Shown here: positions 16,828 through 29,491 of the stretch, one piece after another
Layout: each line of letters opens with the position of its first letter
How positions within the stretch are numbered: position 1 is the stretch's first letter
Assembly (NCBI GenBank): GCA_031272085.1
Contig: JAISUN010000005.1
Span: 762 to 64,761, forward strand
Direction: 5' to 3'
Origin: Dysgonamonadaceae bacterium
GTDB lineage: Bacteria; Bacteroidota; Bacteroidia; Bacteroidales; Azobacteroidaceae
Length of the DNA stretch: 64,000 nucleotides
Position numbers and translations under genes: made by a program
The notes under the pieces: model-generated
Database searches by the model: none
Told to the model about the DNA's origin: nothing
Seen by the model: the letters and a program-made list of their open reading frames with translations, nothing else

Positions 16828-18537
16828 CTAATAAGCATCATTATGCACCGAAAGCACAGCCCGCCCCGAAGGGTCTATCATTTTTTTGAAAGCCTCGTCC
16901 CATTCGAGGGCTATCGGGGTGCTGCACGCTACGGACGGCACCGAGGGAACGGTCAGCGCGGCCGCATCGGAGGGGAATAATTCCTCGAAAATGGAGCGGT
17001 AATGATATTCTTCCTTCGTCATCGGCGGATTTATCGGAAAACGCTCGGCGGCCTTGGCGAACATCTCGTCGGAAACCTGCGCCGAAGCCACTTCGCGAAG
17101 CGTATCAATCCAACTGTAACCTACGCCGTCGGAAAACTGCTCTTTCTGCCGCCATGCCACGCTTTCGGGCAAATAGTCCTCGAAAGCCTTGCGAAGAATC
17201 CACTTTTCCATACGGCCTTTCAGCCCGCTCAATTTGTCTTCGGGGTTGAGGCGCATCGCAACGTCCATAAATTCCTTGTCTAAGAAAGGCACGCGCCCCT
17301 CTACTCCCCACGCCGCCAACGACTTATTGGCACGCAAACAGTCGTAAAGATAGAGTTTGTCGAGTTTGCGCACGGTTTCTTCGTGCAAAGCCTTGGCGTT
17401 AGGCGCTTTATGAAAATAAAGATAGCCGCCGAAAATCTCGTCGGCGCCTTCGCCGGAAAGCACCATTTTTATACCCATCGACTTGATGACCCGCGCTAAA
17501 AGACACATCGGAGTAGATGCGCGGACAGTCGTAACATCGTAAGTTTCAATATGATAAATCACGTCGCGGATAGCGTCGAGGCCTTCCTGGATGGTAAAAT
17601 GTATTTCGTGATGAACGGTTCCGATATGGTCGGCCACTTTCTGTGCGGCGGCCAAATCGGGCGAGCCTTCCAGTCCTACCGCAAACGAGTGCAGGCGCGG
17701 CCACCATGCTTTTTCCAGCCCGTCGCTCTCGACTCGTTTTGAGGCGTATTTTTTTGCAACGGCCGACACTATCGACGAATCCAATCCTCCCGAAAGCAGC
17801 ACTCCATAAGGCACGTCGGTCATAAGTTGCCGTTTCACAGCCGCTTCCAAGGCGTCGCGCAGTTCGTCTATCACTTCGGGATGGTCTTCGCAGGACGGGT
17901 TGTTTTTCACGTTTTCGTAATCCATCCAGTCGCGCTTGTACCAGCGGACGTAATTAAATCCCCTTTTCCCCTTTTCGGCCTTTGTTCCCGAATAAAGGTA
18001 ATGGCCGGGAGGGAATGATTCTATCTCATCGCAATAACCTTCTAAAGATTTCAGTTCCGAAGCCACGTAAAGCAATCCGTTCCTGTCGCGCCCGATGTAG
18101 AGCGGGATTATGCCTATATGGTCGCGGGCTATGAGGTAAGAATCGTTGCGCGAATCGTAAAGCGCAAAGGCGAAAATGCCGTTCAAATCTTCCAAAAAAT
18201 CAATGCCTTTTTCCATATAAAGCGAGAGGATAACTTCGCAGTCGGACTTGGTTTTGAAGTCGTAAGTCCCTGCCTGACGGTCTCTTATATCCTGATGGTT
18301 ATAAATCTCACCATTAACGGCAAGGGCGACTTTTCCGTCGGGCGAATAAAGCGGTTGCCGTCCCGATTGCGGGTCAACGATGGCTAAACGCTCGTGCGCA
18401 AGAATGGCTTTTTCACTGCAATAGATTCCCGACCAGTCGGGACCGCGGTGCCGGATTTTTTTCGACATCGACAGGGCTTGGGCGCGTAAGGGTTCTACGT
18501 TCCCCTTTATATCAAAGATTCCAACTATTCCACACAT
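16828..18537 (-). CDS. asnB: Asparagine synthetase B (glutamine-hydrolysing)
   Basis: MCGI N-terminal nucleophile, RHRGPDWSG, LLSGGLDSS, SGEGADE. Confidence 0.97.
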   Translation of the reverse strand: MCGIVGIFDIKGNVEPLRAQALSMSKKIRHRGPDWSGIYCSEKAILAHERLAIVDPQSGRQPLYSPDGKVALAVNGEIYNHQDIRDRQAGTYDFKTKSDCEVILSLYMEKGIDFLEDLNGIFAFALYDSRNDSYLIARDHIGIIPLYIGRDRNGLLYVASELKSLEGYCDEIESFPPGHYLYSGTKAEKGKRGFNYVRWYKRDWMDYENVKNNPSCEDHPEVIDELRDALEAAVKRQLMTDVPYGVLLSGGLDSSIVSAVAKKYASKRVESDGLEKAWWPRLHSFAVGLEGSPDLAAAQKVADHIGTVHHEIHFTIQEGLDAIRDVIYHIETYDVTTVRASTPMCLLARVIKSMGIKMVLSGEGADEIFGGYLYFHKAPNAKALHEETVRKLDKLYLYDCLRANKSLAAWGVEGRVPFLDKEFMDVAMRLNPEDKLSGLKGRMEKWILRKAFEDYLPESVAWRQKEQFSDGVGYSWIDTLREVASAQVSDEMFAKAAERFPINPPMTKEEYHYRSIFEELFPSDAAALTVPSVPSVACSTPIALEWDEAFKKMIDPSGRAVLSVHNDAY

Positions 18538-18591
18538 ATTTTTTTATTATTTTTTATTTTACAGTATTATTTTTTTTGTAATTTTCAATTC

Positions 18592-20010
18592 TCAATTTTC
18601 AAGGAATTTCTTTATTTCCTCGGCCGCTTTGCGTCCCGCATCAATGGCGCGGACAACGAGGCTGGCTCCGCTTGTTACGTCGCCGGCTACAAATACCTTA
18701 TTGACAGACGATTGCCAAGGTTTTACGGCCTGCACGTTTCCGCGTCCGTCGTATTGAACGCCCAGAGCGTCGAGCAGTCCTTCGTGAACCGGATGGACAA
18801 ATCCCATCGAGAGCAAAACGAGGTCGGTGGCGATGATTTCCGGTTTTCCGGTTTCCTGCATCGTCATACGTCCCGAAGCGTCTTTAATCCATTCTACCTC
18901 AACAACTTCCACGCCGGTCAGTTTTCCTTTTGTCCCGATGAAACGCTTCGATGCCAGCGACCAGCGGCGGGTGCAGCCCTCCTTGTGCGAACTCGAAGTT
19001 TTCAGGATATTGGGATAGTAAGGCCATGGAGTATCGGGATTGCGGTCTTCGGGCGGCTTCGGCAGAATTTCGATTTGCGTAACCGAAGCGGCTTTTTGCC
19101 TAACCGAAGTGCCTACGCAGTCGGAGCCGGTATCGCCGCCGCCAATGACGAGGACTTTTTTGTTTTTGGCCGAAATTTGCTCCGCCGCAGGGAAAGTTTG
19201 GCCTGCAACAACGCGGTTTTGCTGTTTCAGGAAGTCGAGAGCGAAATGGATTCCCTTCAATTCCCGGCCTTCAATCGGCAAATCGCGCGGAACGCCCGAA
19301 CCCATGCAAAGGCAGACGGCGTCGTATTTCGAGAGCAGTTTATCGACCGGCAAATCTTTTCCGACTTCGGTATTTGCGGTAAAGGTAATTCCTTCATCTG
19401 CAAGCAGTTTCAGGCGGCGGTCGATAATTTCCTTGTTCAATTTGAAATCGGGGATTCCGAGCCGGAGCAGTCCGCCGATGTATTCGTCTTTTTCAAAGAC
19501 GGTTACGGCGTGGCCTGCACGGTTCAGCATATCGGCGGCGGCAAGTCCCGCGGGGCCGGAGCCTACGACGGCAACTTTTTTTCCTGTGCGCGATTTCGGC
19601 GGATAGGCCTTTACAAAACCCTCTGCGAAAGCGTGTTCTGCAATGGCGGCCTCGTTTTCGCGGATTGTCAGCGGCTGGTTTTCGATGTTCAGCACGCAGC
19701 CTTTTTCGCATATTGCCGGACAAACTCTTCCCGTAAATTCGGGAAAATTATTCGTAGAGTTGAGCAGGCGGTAAGCCTCAAACCATTTGCCCTTGTAGAG
19801 CAGGTCTTGCCATTCGGGAATCAGGTTGGCTAAGGGACACGACCAATGGCAAAACGGCACGCCGCACTCCATGCAGCGCGATGCTTGCAGCATACGGTCT
19901 TCCATATTCAGGGTCTGCTCCACTTCGCCGTAGTCGGCTATGCGGTCGTGAACCGGACGGTATCCGGCTTCTTTTCTGTTTATCGTTAAAAATGCTTTTG
20001 CGTTTCCCAT
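18592..20010 (-). CDS. gltD: Glutamate synthase small subunit
   Basis: RCMECGVPFC, NNFPEFTGRVCPA.CE, GSGPAGL, GGGDTGSDC. Confidence 0.96.
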   Translation of the reverse strand: MGNAKAFLTINRKEAGYRPVHDRIADYGEVEQTLNMEDRMLQASRCMECGVPFCHWSCPLANLIPEWQDLLYKGKWFEAYRLLNSTNNFPEFTGRVCPAICEKGCVLNIENQPLTIRENEAAIAEHAFAEGFVKAYPPKSRTGKKVAVVGSGPAGLAAADMLNRAGHAVTVFEKDEYIGGLLRLGIPDFKLNKEIIDRRLKLLADEGITFTANTEVGKDLPVDKLLSKYDAVCLCMGSGVPRDLPIEGRELKGIHFALDFLKQQNRVVAGQTFPAAEQISAKNKKVLVIGGGDTGSDCVGTSVRQKAASVTQIEILPKPPEDRNPDTPWPYYPNILKTSSSHKEGCTRRWSLASKRFIGTKGKLTGVEVVEVEWIKDASGRMTMQETGKPEIIATDLVLLSMGFVHPVHEGLLDALGVQYDGRGNVQAVKPWQSSVNKVFVAGDVTSGASLVVRAIDAGRKAAEEIKKFLEN

Positions 20011-20011
20011 A

Positions 20012-23000
20012 TCAATAATCCGATTCTACAAGTTCAATTTTCTTCTTTATCGCTTCCATTTTTTCTTCCTGCAAGACTTTTTTGTATTCGATTGGGGTAA
20101 TTTTGATGAAATGTTTCAGGTAATTATCCCAGTCGTCGAGGATTCGCTTGGCGAGTCCGCTTTTGGTGTAATAATAATGCTGCGAAATGAGGTGGTGCAG
20201 TTCCAGACTGTCCGACTTATCTTCAATCAGCGTCAATTCCACCATTTCCATATTGCAAAAATAGTCGAAATCGCCTTTCATATCGAGGACGTAAGCCAGT
20301 CCGCCGCTCATTCCGGCCGCGAAATTTTTGCCCGTAGAACCGAGAACTACGGTGCGGCCGCCGGTCATATACTCGCAACAGTGGTCGCCTGCGCCTTCCA
20401 CAACGGCTATTGCGCCCGAATTTCTGACGCAAAACCTCTCGCCTACCCTGCCGTTGATGTAAACTTCGCCCGAAGTGGCTCCGTAAAGCGATGTATTTCC
20501 GGCAATTATGTTGTTTTCCGGTACAAATTGCGCCGATTTTGGCGGCACAACGGCGATACGTCCGCCGGAAAGTCCTTTGCCCAGATAGTCGTTGGTTTCG
20601 CCTTCGATATAGAAAGTTACTCCAGCCGACAGGAATGCTCCGAAACTCTGACCGGCAGAGCCTTTGAAGGTTATTGTGATAGTCCCGTCCTGCAAGCCGC
20701 GGTTGCCGTAGCGCTTGGCTATTTCGCCCGAAAGCATTGCGCCCACAGCGCGGTCGGTGTTTGCTATCGCAACGTTCATCTCGACGGGCAACTGCTTCTC
20801 TATCGCGGGTTTAGTTTTGCGGATAAGTTCGCGGTCGAGAACGTTGTCGATTTTATGGTTCTGAACGCTTGTGCAGCGGATGTCATTGCCGTTATTTACG
20901 AAGTGAAGCAGTTTTGAAAAGTCGAGTTTCGCCGCTTTTTCGTTAATTTTCAGGTCTTTGCGCACTTCCAGCAAGTCGGAGCGGCCGATTATCTCGTCCA
21001 TCGTTTTGAAGCCCATTTGAGCCAGATGTTCGCGCACTTCGGTTGCAAGGAAAGTGAAAAAATTGACGAGATATTCGTATTTTCCCTTGAAACGCGCCCG
21101 CAGCCGCTCGTCTTGCGTAGCGACGCCTACCGGACAGGTATTCAGGTGGCATTTGCGCATCATCACGCAACCGAGGACAATCAGGGCGCTGGTTGCGAAG
21201 CCGAACTCTTCGGCTCCGAGCAGGGCTGAAACGATTATGTCTTTGCCGGACTTCAACTGTCCGTCGGTTTGCAGGCGCACGTAGCGTCGAAGGTCGTTCA
21301 GCACCAGTGTTTGCTGCGTTTCGGCCAATCCGAGTTCGCCCGGAATGCCTGCGTGTTTTATCGAACTCATCGGGCTTGCTCCGGTTCCGCCTTCGGCTCC
21401 GCTAATCAGAATCATATCGGCTTTGGCTTTTGCAACGCCTGCCGCGATGGTTCCAACGCCGGTTTCGGCCACAAGTTTTACCGAAATTCTTGCCGCGGGA
21501 TTGACGTTTTTCAGGTCGAAAATCAGTTGGGCAAGGTCTTCTATCGAATAAATATCGTGGTGCGGAGGCGGGGAAATAAGTGTGATTCCGGGAATCGAGT
21601 GCCGGGTTTTCGCAATGATTTTATCAACCTTGAATCCGGGCAACTGTCCGCCTTCGCCGGGTTTTGCGCCCTGCGCGATTTTTATTTGCAGTTCGTCGGC
21701 ATTGACAAGATATTCGGTTGTAACGCCGAAGCGTCCGGATGCTATTTGCTTGATTGCCGAGCGGCGGTTCAGTCCGTCGTCGCCAACTTGGAAACGCGCC
21801 GGGTCTTCGCCGCCTTCGCCGGTATTGCTTTTGCCGTTCAGCGCGTTGAGCGCGATTGCTAAAGCCTCGTGCGCTTCCTTGCTGATTGAGCCGAAAGACA
21901 TTGCGCCGGTAACAAAGCGTTTGGTAATCGATTCTATTGATTCAACTTTTGAAATATCAATCGGTTTCCGCTTGTAAGTAAGGAAGTCGCGCAGGAAAAC
22001 GGGCGATATTTTATTATCTACAATGTCGGTATATTCTTTGAACTTGGCGTAATCGCCGGTGCGGGTCGCAATCTGCAATCGCGCTATTGTTTCGGGATTC
22101 CATGCGTGATATTCGCCCTCGCGGCGGTAGGAATAAATCCCCGCATTGTCGAGCGTATAAGTCGCTTTCATCTTGAAATCGGGCAAACCCTTGTCGTGAA
22201 AAGCCTCGTAATGAAACGCGAGCGCATCGCGGGCAATGTCCGACATATCTATTCCGCCGATTCGGGAAGTCATCTCGCGGAAGCAGGAATCAAGCGCTTT
22301 TTGGCCGATTCCGACTGCCTCGTAAATCTGTGCGCCGCGGTAACTGCGGAGCGTGGAAATTCCCATTTTCGACAGGACTTTCAAAAGCCCTTTGCTGACC
22401 GATTTTATGTAATTTTTCTCGGCTGTGTGGTAGTCGAGTTGGATTTCGTGAAGATTGACTTTCTCGTTCAGCACTGCGAAAGCCATATACGGGTTTACCG
22501 CGGTCGCTCCGAAAGCGAAAAGCAGGGCGAAATGGTTCACTTCGCGGGCTTCGGCCGTCTCAACCACTATTGCTATCTGCATACGTTTCCGCTTCTCAAT
22601 CAGATGGTGATGGATAGCCGAAACTGCGAGCAATGACGGTATTGGAGCGTGTTCCGCATCAACTCCGCGGTCGCTCAAAATTATGTAGTGATATCCTTCG
22701 TTTACGGCCTTTTCGGCCTGCTGGCAAAGGGCGTGCAAGGCTTCCGTCAGGGTTTTTGCGCCTTTTTCGGGCGGACAGACGTCGAACAACATCGGGACGG
22801 TCAGCGAGCGAAATCCCTTGTAACCCAGATGAGTAAGTATGTCGAGTTCGATATTGTTCAGAATCGGAACTCCGAGTTTTACCATTTTGCACTGTTCGGG
22901 CGAGGCTTCCAGCACATTGCCGTCCTGACAGCCGATGTACAGCGAAAGCGACATCACAAGTTCTTCGCGAATCGGGTCGATAGGCGGGTTTGTAACCTGC

Positions 23001-24553
23001 GCAAACAGTTGGCGGAAATAGTTGAACAGGATTTGCGGCTTGTTCGACAGTACGGCTGTCGGAGTGTCGTTGCCCATCGAACCTATCGGCTCTTTGCCGT
23101 CGGTAGCCATCGGGATAATCAGCCTCTCGACGTCTTCTTTCGAGTATCCGAAGGCTTTCAACTGTTCGGGAAGTGAATCGACGTCGTAACGCACTGTGCG
23201 TCCGGAAGATATGTCGCCAAGCGTAATCCGGCTCCTGTTCAGCCACTCGCGGTAAGGATACTTTTCGGCCAATTCTGCTTTTAATTCCTTGTCATAGAAG
23301 AGTTTGCCTTCTTTCGTATCCACCATCAGCATTTTTCCGGGTTGAAGGCGGCCTTTTTCTTTTATTTCGCCGGCCTCGAAAGGCAAAACTCCCGCTTCGG
23401 AGGCGACGACCATAATATCGTTGTTGGTAATCAGGTAGCGGGCGGGGCGCAATCCGTTGCGGTCCAACATTCCGCCTGCGTAGCGGCCGTCGGTAAAGAG
23501 CAGGGTTGCAGGCCCGTCCCAGGGTTCCATTATGATGCTGTGATATTCGTAATATGCTTTCAGTTCGTCGGAAATGGGATTTTTGCTGTTCCAACTTTCG
23601 GGGACGAGCATCGAAAGCGCGTGAGGCAGCGTGAATCCGGCCATCACAAGAAATTCGAGGACGTTGTCAAGCGAGGCGCTGTCCGACATTCCGGGCTGTA
23701 TGACGGGGAAAATTTCTTCCAAATTGCCGAGTTCCGGCACTTTCAGCACCGATTCGCGGGCTTTCATCCAGTAGCGGTTGCCACGGATGGTGTTGATTTC
23801 GCCGTTATGTCCGAGCAGGCGGAAAGGCTGCGCCAAATCCCAACTCGGAAAAGTGTTGGTGCTGAACCGCGAATGAACCAGCGCAAGTCCGCTCGTAAAA
23901 TAAGGATTCTGCAAGTCGGTAAAATAGTCGCGCAACTGGGTCGAGGTCAACATTCCCTTGTAAATTATCCGTTGCGTGGAAAGGCTGACGATGTAAAAAG
24001 TCCGTTTGTCGGCAAGCGAAGATTTCAGGATTTTCTTTTCCATCTTCTTGCGGGCGATGTAGAGTTTCTGCTCCAAAGTCCGTCCGCCAGCCGTGGAGTT
24101 GGAAGGGGTAGCCTCAACGACGAAAATCTGCTTTATTGCAGGTTCGTTTTGGCGGGAAATTTCGCCCAGAATGTCGCCGTTCACCGGAACATCGCGCGTA
24201 GCCAGCGTTTTCAGGCCTTCCTGCTCAATTATGTTGTTCAAAACCTCCATATACAGCGAGGCCTGCTCATCGTCTTTCGGCAGGAAAATGAGGCCGGTGC
24301 CGTATTTTCCGCGTTCGGGAACCGGAATTCCTTGCAGCAGAATAAATTCGTGCGGGATTTGAAGCGTGATTCCCGCGCCGTCGCCTGTTACCTTGTCGGC
24401 GCTCTCGGCGCCGCGATGGAGCATGTGTTCAAGCACTTGCAGGCCCTTCTCTACTATATCGTGCGACTTGTTGCCGTGAATATCCACCAGCAAACCTACT
24501 CCGCAGGCGTCGTGTTCAAAGTCCGGCTCGTACAGTCCTTTATATTCTGTCAT
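20012..24553 (-). CDS. gltB: Glutamate synthase large subunit
   Basis: EHDACGVG, HSRFSTNT, QGAKPGEGGQLPG, CVMMRKCHLNTCPVG. Confidence 0.98.
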   Translation of the reverse strand: MTEYKGLYEPDFEHDACGVGLLVDIHGNKSHDIVEKGLQVLEHMLHRGAESADKVTGDGAGITLQIPHEFILLQGIPVPERGKYGTGLIFLPKDDEQASLYMEVLNNIIEQEGLKTLATRDVPVNGDILGEISRQNEPAIKQIFVVEATPSNSTAGGRTLEQKLYIARKKMEKKILKSSLADKRTFYIVSLSTQRIIYKGMLTSTQLRDYFTDLQNPYFTSGLALVHSRFSTNTFPSWDLAQPFRLLGHNGEINTIRGNRYWMKARESVLKVPELGNLEEIFPVIQPGMSDSASLDNVLEFLVMAGFTLPHALSMLVPESWNSKNPISDELKAYYEYHSIIMEPWDGPATLLFTDGRYAGGMLDRNGLRPARYLITNNDIMVVASEAGVLPFEAGEIKEKGRLQPGKMLMVDTKEGKLFYDKELKAELAEKYPYREWLNRSRITLGDISSGRTVRYDVDSLPEQLKAFGYSKEDVERLIIPMATDGKEPIGSMGNDTPTAVLSNKPQILFNYFRQLFAQVTNPPIDPIREELVMSLSLYIGCQDGNVLEASPEQCKMVKLGVPILNNIELDILTHLGYKGFRSLTVPMLFDVCPPEKGAKTLTEALHALCQQAEKAVNEGYHYIILSDRGVDAEHAPIPSLLAVSAIHHHLIEKRKRMQIAIVVETAEAREVNHFALLFAFGATAVNPYMAFAVLNEKVNLHEIQLDYHTAEKNYIKSVSKGLLKVLSKMGISTLRSYRGAQIYEAVGIGQKALDSCFREMTSRIGGIDMSDIARDALAFHYEAFHDKGLPDFKMKATYTLDNAGIYSYRREGEYHAWNPETIARLQIATRTGDYAKFKEYTDIVDNKISPVFLRDFLTYKRKPIDISKVESIESITKRFVTGAMSFGSISKEAHEALAIALNALNGKSNTGEGGEDPARFQVGDDGLNRRSAIKQIASGRFGVTTEYLVNADELQIKIAQGAKPGEGGQLPGFKVDKIIAKTRHSIPGITLISPPPHHDIYSIEDLAQLIFDLKNVNPAARISVKLVAETGVGTIAAGVAKAKADMILISGAEGGTGASPMSSIKHAGIPGELGLAETQQTLVLNDLRRYVRLQTDGQLKSGKDIIVSALLGAEEFGFATSALIVLGCVMMRKCHLNTCPVGVATQDERLRARFKGKYEYLVNFFTFLATEVREHLAQMGFKTMDEIIGRSDLLEVRKDLKINEKAAKLDFSKLLHFVNNGNDIRCTSVQNHKIDNVLDRELIRKTKPAIEKQLPVEMNVAIANTDRAVGAMLSGEIAKRYGNRGLQDGTITITFKGSAGQSFGAFLSAGVTFYIEGETNDYLGKGLSGGRIAVVPPKSAQFVPENNIIAGNTSLYGATSGEVYINGRVGERFCVRNSGAIAVVEGAGDHCCEYMTGGRTVVLGSTGKNFAAGMSGGLAYVLDMKGDFDYFCNMEMVELTLIEDKSDSLELHHLISQHYYYTKSGLAKRILDDWDNYLKHFIKITPIEYKKVLQEEKMEAIKKKIELVESDY

Positions 24554-24611
24554 TTTGTATCAAATCACTCTTTCTTTGTCATTTATTGATTATTGTTTAT
24601 TTTGCGTTCCA

Positions 24612-24656
24612 AACCCGCAACTCCCTATATTTCAAATAATTGAGGAATTGCGGGTT
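24612..24656. terminator. Hairpin between glnA and gltB (terminator or mRNA stability element)
   Basis: AACCCGCAA.TCC ... GGA.TTGCGGGTT stem, with only a short U tract on the minus strand. Confidence 0.5.
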
Positions 24657-24702
24657 GAAATGCAGCCGCAAAAGGCGGATTTTTAGCGTTTTTCCGCTCG
24701 TT

Positions 24703-26898
24703 TTAGCGAATGAACAGCAGTTCGCGATATTTCGGCATGGGCCAAAGTTCGTTATCGACTACAAGTTCAAGTTTATCAACCTGATAGCGGATTTCATCGA
24801 AGAACGGCAATACCTTGTCGTGGTATTCTATTGCTTTTTCGCGTTCCGATTCTATCTTGTTGGCTACTTTGCGGGCTTCAATCATCGCTTCCACGCGGTA
24901 TTTGATGATAGATATGCGTTCCGAAATTTCTTCGATGATTCCCTTGTCAAGGGCGCCGAGTTCCGAAGCCTTTTCTTTGCTGTAAACCTGATAAAGTTTG
25001 TAAACATTGTCGAGCAGCGAGGACTGGTATTTTGTGGCCACCGGAATGATGTGATTCAGCACCAAATCGCCCAAAACGCGCGATTCTATCTGGATTTTCT
25101 TGGTGTAAGTTTCCCATTTTACCTCGTTGCGGGCGTGAAGTTCGCGTTCCGAAAGCACCTCTATGCTTTCAAACAGTTTTACGGCGTCTTTTGAAGTGTG
25201 GGCGTCGATAATCAGCGGCACGCTTGTTTCGCAGTCCAAGCCGCGTTTTGCCGCTTCTTCTTTCCATTCTTCGCTGTAACCGTTGCCGTCGAAACGGATA
25301 GGCTTCGATTCTTTGATGTATTTTTTCAGAACCTCGAAAATGGCCTTGTTTTTAGCCGCGCCTTTGGTAATTTCGGCGTCCACCGTTTTCTTAAATTCCT
25401 TCAACTGGGCTGCTACAATGGCGTTGAGCGTAATCATACCCGAAGCGCAGTTGGCCGACGAGCCTACGGCGCGGAACTCAAAGCGGTTTCCGGTAAATGC
25501 GAAAGGCGAAGTGCGGTTGCGGTCGGTGTTGTCGAGCAACACTTCGGGAATTTTCGCGATGCCGAGTCTCATTCTCTGTTTCGAGTCGATGACGATGGCC
25601 TGTTCGCTGGTCGCTTTTTCCAATTTGTCGAGAACAGACGACACCTGCGAGCCGAGAAATACCGAAATAATTGCCGGAGGAGCCTCGTTAGCGCCCAGAC
25701 GGTGTGCATTTTGAGCGGTCATTATCGAGGCTTTCAGCAGGGCGTTGTTTTTGTAAACCGCCATCAGGATATTGACTACAAACGTGATAAATTGCAGGTT
25801 TTCTTCGGGAGTTTTGCCCGGAGTGAGCAGTCCGACGCCGGTATCGGTGCCGAGCGACCAGTTGTTGTGCTTTCCCGAACCGTTGATTCCGGCAAACGGC
25901 TTTTCGTGCAGCAGCAGGCGGAATCCGTGGCGGCGGGCGACTTTCTTCATTATCGACATCATCAGCAAGTTCTGGTCAACCGAAAGGTTGGTCTCGCCGA
26001 AAATCGGAGCAAGTTCAAACTGATTTGGGGCAACCTCGTTATGACGGGTTTTCAGAGGTATCCCGTATTTATATCCTTCATACTCAATATCTTTCATATA
26101 TGCCTGAACGCGCGTCGGAACCGAACCGAAATAATGGTCTTCCAACTGCTGGTCTTTTGCCGAATCGTGGCCGATGAGCGTACGTCCGGTAAGCATCAGG
26201 TCGGGACGGGTAGCGTAAAGCCCGTCGTCGATAAGGAAATATTCCTGTTCCCAACCGAGGTAGGAAAAAACTTTTTTTACCGACTTGTCGAAATAGTGGC
26301 AAACATCGACGGCCGCTTTATCGACAGCATTAAGAGCCTTTAACAGAGGCGTTTTGTAATCCAGCGCTTCGCCCGTGTAGGAAATGAAAACCGTGGGGAT
26401 GCAAAGCGTGTCATCGACGATAAATGCGGGCGACGAGGGGTCCCAGGCCGTATAGCCGCGGGCTTCAAACGTGTTGCGGATGCCGCCGCTGGGGAAGGAC
26501 GATGCGTCCGGTTCCTGCTGTGCGAGCAGTTTTCCTGAAAATTCCTCAATTACCGGACTGCCGGGAGCGCCCGAATATTCGATAAAAGAGTCGTGCTTTT
26601 CAGCCGTCCCTTCGGTAAGCGGCTGAAACCAGTGGGTATAATGCGTTGCGCCGTTTTCTATCGCCCACGCTTTCATACCTGCCGCCACATGATTGGCCAA
26701 CTCGCGGTCGAGGGTTTCGCCCCGCTCTATTACCGCTGTTAAGGCATCCAGAGTCTCTTTCGAGAGGTACTTTGTCATTTGCGCCTTGTTAAAAACCGAC
26801 TTTCCGTAATACGACGAAGTCAATGCTTCGGGCGCCGACACTGCCGCCGCTTTCTTTTTGTAAGCCTCTTCTACTGCTTTAAATCTTAATTTAGACAT
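24703..26898 (-). CDS. glnA: Glutamine synthetase type III
   Basis: 731 aa. THWFQPLT, EPDASSFPSGG, HNEVAPNQFE, HEKPFAGINGSGKHNNWS, DRNRTSPFAFTGNRFEFR. Confidence 0.97.
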   Translation of the reverse strand: MSKLRFKAVEEAYKKKAAAVSAPEALTSSYYGKSVFNKAQMTKYLSKETLDALTAVIERGETLDRELANHVAAGMKAWAIENGATHYTHWFQPLTEGTAEKHDSFIEYSGAPGSPVIEEFSGKLLAQQEPDASSFPSGGIRNTFEARGYTAWDPSSPAFIVDDTLCIPTVFISYTGEALDYKTPLLKALNAVDKAAVDVCHYFDKSVKKVFSYLGWEQEYFLIDDGLYATRPDLMLTGRTLIGHDSAKDQQLEDHYFGSVPTRVQAYMKDIEYEGYKYGIPLKTRHNEVAPNQFELAPIFGETNLSVDQNLLMMSIMKKVARRHGFRLLLHEKPFAGINGSGKHNNWSLGTDTGVGLLTPGKTPEENLQFITFVVNILMAVYKNNALLKASIMTAQNAHRLGANEAPPAIISVFLGSQVSSVLDKLEKATSEQAIVIDSKQRMRLGIAKIPEVLLDNTDRNRTSPFAFTGNRFEFRAVGSSANCASGMITLNAIVAAQLKEFKKTVDAEITKGAAKNKAIFEVLKKYIKESKPIRFDGNGYSEEWKEEAAKRGLDCETSVPLIIDAHTSKDAVKLFESIEVLSERELHARNEVKWETYTKKIQIESRVLGDLVLNHIIPVATKYQSSLLDNVYKLYQVYSKEKASELGALDKGIIEEISERISIIKYRVEAMIEARKVANKIESEREKAIEYHDKVLPFFDEIRYQVDKLELVVDNELWPMPKYRELLFIR

Positions 26899-26998: not shown

Positions 26999-27157
26999 AA
27001 GGTTTTTTTTTATTCTACTACTATTTTTTATGATTTTTTTCATTTTATCGAAAAATTTGCAGAGAAAAAGGGAAAATTACGCACAAATGCAGGCTTTTGT
27101 TTTTGAAAAAAATAATTGTCAAGTATTGAATTAGAAAAATAATATTTTTGTCCGGCT

Positions 27158-27423
27158 TGTTTGTCACTACATAAGTGACAAAATTTGTTCGGCACAAAGG
27201 TAAAGGCGTTTTTTGACTTCTTTTGTGTCAATTTGCAAAAATATTATGTCATTTTGCAAAACTCATTTCTGAAATTTGGATTTATTTGCCTGTTGATTCT
27301 CTTTTTCTGATATTATAAACTGTTTCCGAAAAGTTGTTTTTAGAAAATTTATACTACTGTATTTCTGTCGGTTAGGTTATATTTTCCCTCTATTACGTTT
27401 TGTCACTTATGTAGTGACAAACA
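27158..27423. promoter_or_regulatory. Putative invertible promoter (inverton) bounded by perfect 26-bp inverted repeats
   Basis: 27158-27183 TGTTTGTCACTACATAAGTGACAAAA is the exact reverse complement of 27398-27423 TTTTGTCACTTATGTAGTGACAAACA. An internal -7 element TACCTTTG lies on the minus strand at 27195-27202. Confidence 0.85.
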
Positions 27424-27451: not shown

Positions 27452-29176
27452 ATGAAACGAACAATTTTTTTGGTAATCGCGCTCGCAGCATTGGGCGCGA
27501 CAAACGGCGCAAAGGCGCAGGTAACGATAGGTTCTATGAAAACGCCGGAAGCATTTTCGATTTTGGAACTTATTTCTGACGGAAATCGTGGGTTGAGGCT
27601 GCCACAATTAAGCGACGCCGAAAAAGTTGCCGCTTTTGGGGCGGACAACGCTGTATTAATAACGGCAGGCCAGTCGGCAAAGGGTTTGCAGATTTTCAAC
27701 ACAACTACTCTTTGCGTGGAAACTTGGAACGGCATATCGTGGATTTCCAATTGTGATATGTGCGGCGATGCTCCTTGCCGGAAACTGTCTGCGCCTCTGG
27801 CAAGCAATCAAACTTTGTGTACAAGCGCAAAGATTTCGGATTTGGTTGCTGTGGGCGAAGAAGGCGCAACTTTAAATTGGTACAGCGCAGAAATGGGAGG
27901 CTCGCCCTTGGAGAGCACAAGGGCTTTGACAAACGGTGCAACTTATTATGTCTCGCAGGATAATGGCGTTGATTATGAAAGCGAGAGAACGCCCGTTAAA
28001 GTAACATTAAGCGGCTTGCCCGTCGCGCTTACCCTGACGCTTTCAGCAACAGACGAGCATTTGCGGTCGCAAAAAGCAAATGCCGGAGATACAAACTGTA
28101 CTGATTTGACTACGACTATTACTGCCACTGTAAACGACCCAAATGCCACACTTGTTTGGAGTATTGCAAAAAAACACAATTTGGCGACAATGGCGGATAT
28201 AAATGATGTGGCTTTTTTAAGCGGTACAACTGAGGCAGTAGCCGCCAATACAACCAAGTCGATACAACTTACGGCAAAAGACCTTGAATACTTTAATAAA
28301 AACACCGGCGCATATACTATTACGGTAACGGCAACCGCCTGTGGCTCTTGTTATACAAGCGCTAAAACGGTAACAAAAGATATTTCCGTAGGTTGCGGAG
28401 CGCGTGATATTACGGAAAATACTTGGCTTAAATTTATGTGTCATAATCTTGGGGCTGACCAAACGCTTGACCCGTTTGTATATTATAGTAAAGGAGATAC
28501 TGTTGGCTATGATATTAAGGGCGACCTTTATCAATGGGGGCGTTTTACAGATGGACACGAAAAACGTAGCAACGAGGAACATATCGAGGTGTTTGCTACA
28601 TCTGGGCGTCCTAGTGCTGCCCAATACAATGCTGCGGTAACTGCATATAAGGATATAGGTACTGAAATTCCTTACAAAAAATTTATTTATTATCTGAATA
28701 GTACATATTATGATTGGGTAAATAATACAGATATTACTGCTGATGAAAGCAAGTCGCGTTGGGGTGTTTGCAGCGGCGGTTCAGTAAGCAACACTATGCA
28801 CGACCCGAAAGCAAATAATGACCCTTGTCCTGATGGTTGGAAAGTACCTTCGATGGCACAATGGGGCAGTACCGTGAAAGAAGGTAGTAGTGCTATGGAT
28901 TGCAGTTCAAGTGCGACAACAGCCAACACATGGAGTCAGAAGGATTACGGTTATTATGTTGGAGCATCACTTTTCTTGCCATTTGCTGGCTATCGAACTG
29001 ATTCACATGATTCTTCTTGTGACGAAGATAGACATCTTGGTTGCTATTGGAGCAGTACGTGGAAAGGTACTGCTAATGCGTATAGTCTATATTTCTATTA
29101 CATATTTGGTAACATTGCTGTGGGTATGGCTCACGACCGGGCGAAAGGGAATAGCGTCCGTTGCGTTTCAGAATAA
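27452..29176 (+). CDS. Secreted protein: QVTIG N-terminal module, Ig-like domain(s) and C-terminal FISUMP (Fib_succ_major) domain
   Basis: Signal peptide AKA-Q. Ig-like LNWYS...TYYVSQ...ESERTPVKV. FISUMP motifs FMCHNLGA, GDLYQWGR, DPCPDGWKVPS, FLPFAGYR, YWSST, GNSVRCV. Confidence 0.85.
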   Translation: MKRTIFLVIALAALGATNGAKAQVTIGSMKTPEAFSILELISDGNRGLRLPQLSDAEKVAAFGADNAVLITAGQSAKGLQIFNTTTLCVETWNGISWISNCDMCGDAPCRKLSAPLASNQTLCTSAKISDLVAVGEEGATLNWYSAEMGGSPLESTRALTNGATYYVSQDNGVDYESERTPVKVTLSGLPVALTLTLSATDEHLRSQKANAGDTNCTDLTTTITATVNDPNATLVWSIAKKHNLATMADINDVAFLSGTTEAVAANTTKSIQLTAKDLEYFNKNTGAYTITVTATACGSCYTSAKTVTKDISVGCGARDITENTWLKFMCHNLGADQTLDPFVYYSKGDTVGYDIKGDLYQWGRFTDGHEKRSNEEHIEVFATSGRPSAAQYNAAVTAYKDIGTEIPYKKFIYYLNSTYYDWVNNTDITADESKSRWGVCSGGSVSNTMHDPKANNDPCPDGWKVPSMAQWGSTVKEGSSAMDCSSSATTANTWSQKDYGYYVGASLFLPFAGYRTDSHDSSCDEDRHLGCYWSSTWKGTANAYSLYFYYIFGNIAVGMAHDRAKGNSVRCVSE

Positions 29177-29212: not shown

Positions 29213-29491
29213 ATGGGGCTTATAGAACTGAAAGAAACCGCCCCCCATCGGTGGGAAGCCTGCTACGAAGGCCGGTACGGCCGCTATGCCATTTACGTAA
29301 ACGGCGACGGCAAAACTTTCACAGGGCAGCACTGCACCTGTCCGGATACCGACGAAGAATGTAAACATATAGAAATCGTGAAAGCGATTATCGCGTTCAA
29401 AAACGAGGCGGAACAGAAAAAGAGTTTGTATTCAAGGTTGTTATTATATATCCAAAAATTTGTTTTCAATAATTTTACAAAAGAGAATTAA
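29213..29491 (+). CDS. Small SWIM zinc-finger protein, possibly truncated
   Basis: CTC-x6-CKH SWIM motif in a 92-aa ORF. Confidence 0.6.
   Translation: MGLIELKETAPHRWEACYEGRYGRYAIYVNGDGKTFTGQHCTCPDTDEECKHIEIVKAIIAFKNEAEQKKSLYSRLLLYIQKFVFNNFTKEN

Follow-up and report, generated by a model that had tools for sequence, protein, structure and literature searches.

A promoter segment assembled OFF before a FISUMP-like surface gene is probably a cut-down satellite of AraC-enclosing inversion cassettes

Invertible promoters are well known in Bacteroidales, and an orphan switch taken alone is ordinary. The locus considered here lies in a window of 64,000 nucleotides, contig C80 of genome G000 (2.63 Mb in 139 contigs, 82% complete), whose best-matching sequencing run is a termite gut metagenome. 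It raises the question of where such a switch comes from, what flips it and whether turning its promoter toward the gene would suffice for expression. The original prediction saw an invertible promoter in the OFF orientation. This reading has been supported and its testable inferences held; what it missed is the descent of the segment from an AraC cassette, of which it is a remnant, and the likely need of its promoter for AraC. The explanation we prefer, and hold to be moderately probable, is that C80 is a cut-down satellite of the AraC cassettes, an OFF invertible promoter that is flipped in trans and is predicted to be activated by an AraC protein from elsewhere.

The two inverted repeats, at 27158–27183 and 27398–27423, are both 26 nt long, complementary over 100% of their length and separated by 214 nt. 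As had been described, each contains the dyad TTTGTCAC-N7-GTGACAAA around an asymmetric core. In the left, gene-distal arm, TTTGTCAC occupies 27160–27167, the core TACATAA 27168–27174 and GTGACAAA 27175–27182, and the right, gene-proximal arm has the same dyad with the core TTATGTA, the reverse complement of the left core. Both arms are predicted to be tyrosine-recombinase crossover sites, and the predicted invertible segment between them (27184–27397, 214 nt) was assembled in the OFF orientation. The window has two copies of GTCAC-N7-GTGAC; the mean in shuffled sequences is 0.03, and one of 100 shuffles attained two copies. The segment is a real, non-chance feature. We regard it as very probable that it is a recombinase switch by descent, and as quite likely that the switch still works.

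The Bacteroidales -7 box (TAnnTTTG) is found inside the segment as TACCTTTG at 27202–27195 of the minus strand (P2), off-centre, 11 nt inside the left arm and facing away from the surface gene. Inversion maps this box to 27379–27386, aimed toward the ATG at 27452, as anticipated. The claim that it is the only such box inside has to be corrected, as a second one, TATTTTTG, lies at 27243–27236 of the minus strand within a direct repeat. A third TAnnTTTG box, again TATTTTTG, is located at 27143–27150 of the plus strand, immediately outside the left arm and facing into the segment (P1). The box chosen originally is the one conserved at all eight switch loci of the genome, where P2 reads TA(C/T)CTTTG, points away from the gene and lies 40–71 nt from the outer end of the gene-distal dyad. 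P1 is present at 6/8 loci, inward-facing and 20–23 nt outside the distal dyad. Bacteroidales promoters have a canonical spacing between an upstream TTG and the box. For P2 at C80, a TTG at the canonical 19–21 nt upstream was not found. The spacing for P1 is 20–21 nt in C33, C30 and C57 and 14 or 24 nt at C80, so that P1 has probably decayed here. Since its box survives and no terminator was found inside the 214-nt segment, leaky read-through is possible in both orientations. The segment was also searched with a sigma-70 scan, which is poorly suited to Bacteroidales.

The gene presumably under control of the switch (27452–29176, plus strand) encodes a predicted secreted or surface protein of 574 aa with a signal-peptide-like start, an Ig_7 domain (114–186) and a C-terminal FISUMP-like domain. 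It had been named a FISUMP surface protein; the C-terminal match is present, at scores under the curated cut-offs (PF09603, 27.4 bits with a cut-off of 33.9, E 4.9e-6; TIGR02145, 37.4 with a cut-off of 41.65, E 4e-9). An AlphaFold single-sequence model of the protein had a pLDDT of 32 and was discarded. Directly after this gene there is a 92-aa ORF (29213–29491, plus strand) containing a CxC...CxH pattern, which we take to resemble a SWIM zinc finger; Pfam and NCBIfam searches gave no match for this ORF. Elsewhere, G000 has about two dozen paralogous starts of surface genes and some 17 C-termini of FISUMP-like type, on C1, C12, C16, C24, C63, C69, C83, C92, C120, C123, C125 and other contigs. 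Most of the paralogous starts lack a GTCAC site in the 330 nt before them. The locus on C12 (L046:1100-2560) shows a non-invertible, ON-like layout with a -7 box, a long leader, AraC, a second -7 box and a surface gene of the same family.

The wider regulon implied by the original prediction was found on scanning the genome for paired sites, which revealed eight paired GTCAC-N7(8)-GTGAC loci. GTCAC-N7-GTGAC occurs 14 times in G000 and 12 of these sites make six pairs (C30, C33, C57, C80, C81 and C119); a further site at C48 is paired with a one-letter variant, the one at C40 is alone, and C27 is an extra pair with an 8-nt core. No GTCAC-N6-GTGAC site was found in the genome, and the six matches to GTTAC-N7-GTAAC are all unpaired. 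Eight of the 11 perfect inverted repeats of at least 21 nt (30–2000 nt apart) are the switch loci, the other three being one GC-rich repeat. The two cores are identical and inverted within the locus in 8/8 cases (that of C48 was read from its 22-nt perfect repeat), and seven different cores occur across the eight loci. Tyrosine recombination requires matching overlaps, and this rule of identity within loci and variation between them therefore fits it.

Comparison of the eight loci places C80 at the reduced end of the family. Five segments are ~1.15–1.2 kb long, each enclosing an AraC-family gene that runs antisense to the gene downstream. Four of the cassettes are complete with a recombinase and a whole AraC (C30, C57, C119 and C27) and share the order recombinase, P1, repeat, segment, repeat and downstream (surface) gene, with P2 facing back, repeats of 21-bp period and the antisense AraC gene inside the segment. 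C33 has no recombinase and carries an AraC gene with a frameshift near codon 70. C80 and C81 are reduced to P2, the repeats and a fragment of the AraC 3′ end, and by alignment (104/128 identical around the promoter) C81 is the sister satellite of C80. Measured against the cassette of the Bacteroides fragilis Tsr16 type (see below), C80 has a 23-codon remnant in place of the whole AraC between the repeats and is without the adjacent recombinase that is present in the four complete cassettes.

That no recombinase adjoins C80 had been stated correctly, as the neighbours of the switch are a GSIII glnA and the 92-aa ORF. The trans-acting invertase postulated for this reason has candidates in five tyrosine recombinases that adjoin same-arm sites elsewhere in the genome. 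These Phage_integrase and Phage_int_SAM_5 genes stand beside 5/8 switch loci and retain the YxRRKT, HxxRH, LGH and Tyr motifs; the usual first catalytic Arg is absent, as is also reported for some enzymes of the IntCTnDOT subgroup (PMC8138268). The proteins are 292–345 aa long with no Arm-DNA-bind_5 match, and several relatives with this match have ~420–440 aa; the C27 enzyme has a 20-residue deletion. In a tree of 23 proteins, the five recombinases and two enzymes of genome G012 form one clade (support 99/97), separate from the enzymes beside GACAC, GTCGC or GTTAC sites. A shortened 268-aa paralogue of the C27 recombinase occurs on C111 (L064:1501-2307), with no repeats found nearby.

The origin of the segment was deduced from its interior. 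An AraC 3′ remnant with one in-frame stop lies at 27300–27368 on the minus strand, where 22/23 aa match the C-terminal end of the C33 protein (E 1.6e-10), and DNA similarity continues to about 27382. The segment aligns with C33 for ~195 nt and then skips ~900 nt to the right arm. As judged from this jump and the remnant, the C80 segment arose by deletion from an AraC cassette, the ~1.2-kb one at C33.

AraC-activated promoters have tandem direct-repeat half-sites with a period of ~21 bp, abutting the -33/-35 region. Such an arrangement by the -33/-35 region is found at C80, where two 13-nt direct repeats with the consensus TTGCAAATTGACA lie at 27226–27259 of the minus strand (27259–27247 and 27238–27226; 21-bp period), match at 13/14 positions at period 21 and end 23–24 nt before the P2 box. 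They are predicted from this layout to be an AraC operator. The period-21 score is 12–14/14 at 6/8 loci, with weak values for C119 (8–10/14) and C48 (9–10/14); 12 of the 1251 AT-rich TAnnTTTG sites of G000, a background set that can include the switch loci, attain a score of 12. With up to two mismatches, the C80-type repeat occurs in the genome only at C33, C80, C57 and C81; none was found at three or four mismatches, and the 13 at five or six are chiefly heptamer runs. The half-sites are better kept than their flanks in the comparison of C80, C81 and C33 (23/26 against 30/54; Fisher p = 0.003, for copies that are related and not independent). The first AraC recognition helix is common to C33 and C57, and C30 and C27 have other helices together with other repeats, which is suggestive, among five related proteins, of a helix that tracks the repeat type.

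The following mechanism could be drawn from these features. Recombination between two sites with the same core would invert the segment. In a complete cassette, one flip would set AraC under P1 and turn P2 toward the surface gene, so that P1 of the long cassettes would transcribe AraC only after inversion, and AraC would bind the period-21 repeats and switch P2 on. At C80, a flip would turn P2 toward the gene, and strong transcription would in addition need an AraC whose specificity matches. The leading candidate would be the intact protein of C57, with the repeat and the first recognition helix in common with C33; this protein would itself be made only with the C57 cassette ON. Alternative surface proteins would then be expressed rarely and in a nested manner.

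A two-tier circuit, in which the gene of a satellite is expressed only if both the satellite and a master with the matching operator (C57) are ON, is put forward tentatively. If true, masters would flip AraC onto a fixed P1 while turning an AraC-dependent P2 to the surface gene, and satellites would be born by deletion of recombinase and AraC with crossover sites and operator kept. Locus-specific cores would keep the flips independent, and the operator types would divide the family into separate regulons. The significance of the locus lies in the series displayed by one genome, from a complete AraC-flipping cassette to a minimal satellite, in the prediction that surface proteins of a termite-gut symbiont phase-vary in a nested, AND-gated manner, and in a compact, reporter-testable collection of recombinases, core-coded sites and pairs of AraC and operator.

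The absence of a TTG at canonical spacing from P2, the half-sites that outlast their flanks in copies without an AraC of their own, and the confinement of the motif to these promoters all bear on a simpler account, a stand-alone invertible promoter flipped in trans, with P2 independent of AraC or P1 driving the gene and the repeats as leftovers. All three speak against it. It has precedent nonetheless, as most described Bacteroidales switches of the class are plain promoters in the accounts at hand (PMC4611039, PMC12940148). The short switches at C48 and at locus L017 of G012 adjoin a recombinase and have weak repeats, and the P1 box survives at C80. We consider this account unlikely, though it deserves some weight.

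The reading of C80 as a satellite that still flips has to be confronted with the orientation data. Finding a single orientation had been named among the observations that would count against inversion, and only OFF was indeed seen in the contigs of two runs and in all relatives. In run X1, the possible source (depth ~12), contigs span both C80 arms unchanged, and in run X2 from another study (depth ~5) a contig spans the right arm. No strand-change joint at C80 and no inversion joint at the complete C119 cassette was found among the contigs of these two runs, which drop rare variants, and every repeat-flanked AraC cassette found in relatives is likewise OFF. BT1927, for comparison, is reported to be ON in ~1 of 1000 cells and its B. 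fragilis ortholog in 0.008% in culture, the published members of this switch class being ~99.9% OFF (PMC4611039). Considering the low depth, the contigs that drop rare variants and these precedents, the single orientation does not refute inversion.

A frozen relic, that is, a real switch by descent which has stopped flipping or never gives productive expression, and is now in decay, would also show OFF only, and the series C33, C80 and C81 with its loss of recombinase, AraC and P1 would be in line with decay. Such a relic is hard to reconcile with arms that match at 26/26 positions and have a locus-specific core, when identity of the interior to paralogues is ~83% (106/128), with an intact target ORF and with the presence of same-arm recombinase genes. 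We regard it as distinctly unlikely.

In the OFF state P2 faces the divergent neighbour glnA, a glutamine synthetase of type III (24703–26898, minus strand), about 300 nt off. The nitrogen-assimilation cluster to which it belongs extends over 16828–26898 of the window on the minus strand, with the Pfam-confirmed GSIII glnA and gltB-like, gltD-like and asnB-like genes assigned from the ORF sequences. AraC-activated P2 might thus feed glnA-gltB-gltD-asnB when OFF, the nitrogen genes all being on the minus strand, and the flip would choose between nitrogen assimilation and the surface protein. This two-way promoter is very improbable, because glnA has a -7 box of its own (26998–26991), the left neighbour gene differs at every switch locus and the analogous IVp-II of B. 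fragilis is reported to leave its upstream operon unaffected (PMC4747536). It is hardly credible that a fixed promoter lies between dyads that serve as repressor operators or hairpins, for although the dyads are intergenic palindromes of 17–23 nt, one of which scores terminator-like, and a single orientation was seen, operators give no reason for spacers that are identical and opposed within a locus yet vary between loci, and recombinase genes adjoin 5/8 loci with the box directed away from the gene in 8/8.

The preferred reading, an AraC-dependent satellite of inverting cassettes, can be compared with known systems. At the Tsr16 locus of B. fragilis, inversion affects an AraC gene enclosed by 23-bp repeats, and the neighbouring operon is reported active only when co-oriented; the locus consists of the recombinase BF9343_RS20620, the AraC-family regulator RS20615 and a fimbria-like operon, RS20580-20610 (PMC13139388, PMC11761130). 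This type of switch has been linked to phage protection. The long cassettes of G000 resemble Tsr16 in having a recombinase next to a repeat-enclosed AraC, with surface genes presumed silent when AraC is antisense, a likeness of layout. Unlike Tsr16, which is one locus, the G000 family has five long and three short copies, its targets are FISUMP-like and the C80 copy is without recombinase and AraC. The portions of the Tsr16 accounts at hand describe no outer/inner promoter pair, operator or satellites. By analogy, the same P1/P2 wiring may explain the Tsr16 switch, for which the sequence offers a testable arrangement of outer promoter, inner activator-dependent promoter and operator.

The orphan promoter IVp-II of B. 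fragilis is flipped in trans by the distant BF2766/Tsr19, and its output is reported to rise 25-40-fold with the distant IVp-I ON, a two-switch dependence (PMC4747536). C80 is similar as an invertible promoter without its own recombinase that would be served from a distant locus. The cross-dependence of IVp-II needs IVp-I promoter activity, with a mediator that the accessible account does not name, whereas C80 shows a candidate AraC together with its putative site.

C80 had further been likened to the GTTAC-N7-GTAAC site class. It would work like this class, but its arms are GTCAC...GTGAC and by arm sequence it stands outside; its AraC-cassette origin and a termite instead of a mammalian gut also set it apart from the GTTAC switches. 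With the S-layer family of BT1927 it shares the 17-nt dyad, the 7-nt core, a segment of ~250 bp there, the surface targets and, judged from contigs, the strong OFF bias (PMC4611039). The G000 family as a whole parallels the B. thetaiotaomicron set of eight paralogous loci, whose palindromes are reported to differ only in core (10.1101/521070). A GCTAC arm variant is described for P. distasonis (10.1101/2024.11.17.624012), and the GTCAC arm may already be catalogued. The paralogous tyrosine recombinases BVU2677 and BVU2684 of the P. vulgatus Mfa1-EPS system cross-react on each other's promoters (PMC12940148), and similar cross-reaction is expected among the five of G000; the available part of that account describes no enclosed regulator. 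A literature search found no report of AraC-cassette-derived satellites, of the P1/P2 wiring or of such switches in termite-gut Bacteroidales.

The strict site pattern occurs in 2/36 same-genus genomes and in 0/24 other-family genomes. A relaxed pattern matched 31 of 400 other genomes of the order, with at most three sites each and counts like those of the reversed-pattern control, and no paired relaxed sites were evident among the matches listed. Genome G009 contains eight GTCAC sites with four complete ~270-nt pairs, three of which are shown before similar genes, with P1 and no strict P2. These sites (L009-L016) are near-identical with one core throughout, and several lie at contig ends. The G009 assembly yielded no recombinase of the GTCAC clade, and its ~270-nt segment may be an orientation-dependent leader or terminator. 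G012 has one locus in the order recombinase, short segment and surface gene, with both P1 and P2.

Cassettes of recombinase, enclosed AraC and gene with other arms were observed in G022, G062, G154, G291, G373 and human-gut contigs, the AraC of the latter clustering with B. thetaiotaomicron proteins, and long AraC cassettes without recombinase in G415 and G466. Eleven repeat-flanked AraC cassettes of other genomes or contigs, chosen from 65 loci with seven near-duplicate human-gut contigs omitted, have P1 in eight cases and P2 in nine, and the period-21 score is at least 11 in 4/9 of the P2 regions. All 11 were assembled with AraC antisense (the downstream gene of L209 is ambiguous), and a gene-facing -7 box was found neither in the 230 nt inside the proximal arm nor in the 120 nt beyond it. 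Strict P1 and P2 boxes are absent from the two tested cassettes of B. thetaiotaomicron type, and a same-layout cassette with an AraC of the B. thetaiotaomicron cluster aligns with those of G000 at 23–26%. Repeat-free, co-directional AraC-to-surface-gene loci also exist, including that on C12 and one beside a recombinase. Such non-invertible loci were rejected as natural models of the ON state, a gene-facing -7 box being found in 6/6 but a strong repeat (12) in only 1/6. A search with the C119 AraC protein returned four proteins, three of them from G000; tblastn against plasmids gave seven distant AraC matches, and viral contigs gave one site-pattern match, unpaired.

Some minor observations concern the long cassettes. 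Five AraC leaders (L005:120-284, L003:1593-1752, L001:5408-5573, L002:4912-5077 and L007:5023-5188) have a GC hairpin, a purine run and a T tract before the start codon, as well as a smaller upstream hairpin, and look terminator- or attenuator-like. A structured RNA in these leaders was rejected because the RNAalifold consensus was weak (-3.3 kcal/mol) with an unfavourable covariation term, and Rfam gave three matches on the five cassette loci, all with E above 1 and none meaningful. A conserved ORF of ~180 codons lies between switch and surface gene at C57 (L003:1001-1552), C30 (L001:5613-6128) and C27 (L007:5216-5579); it gave no match in Pfam and NCBIfam and may represent a long leader, not a gene.

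The lone C40 site (L006:1-130, C40:100-116) has the same core as the C119 pair (L005:1-119) in an extended dyad. A 509-nt piece with a surface-gene start and a GTCAC site branches to both contigs at ~2x depth (28 vs 14.6 and 16.2 in X1; 8.2 vs 4.8 and 4.6 in X2). The C40 site may be a third compatible site that swaps the C119 promoter between two surface genes, or a plain duplication. In the human-gut cassette L082 (4534-4559, 5732-5757), the two sites have different core alleles, each matched in L083 and L084, and this cassette is predicted to be locked. Related recombinases in L105, L116 and L085 are flanked by inverted repeats of 56–118 nt in a shufflon-like manner, and in L105 and L116 these long repeats cover the starts of divergent SusC-like genes.
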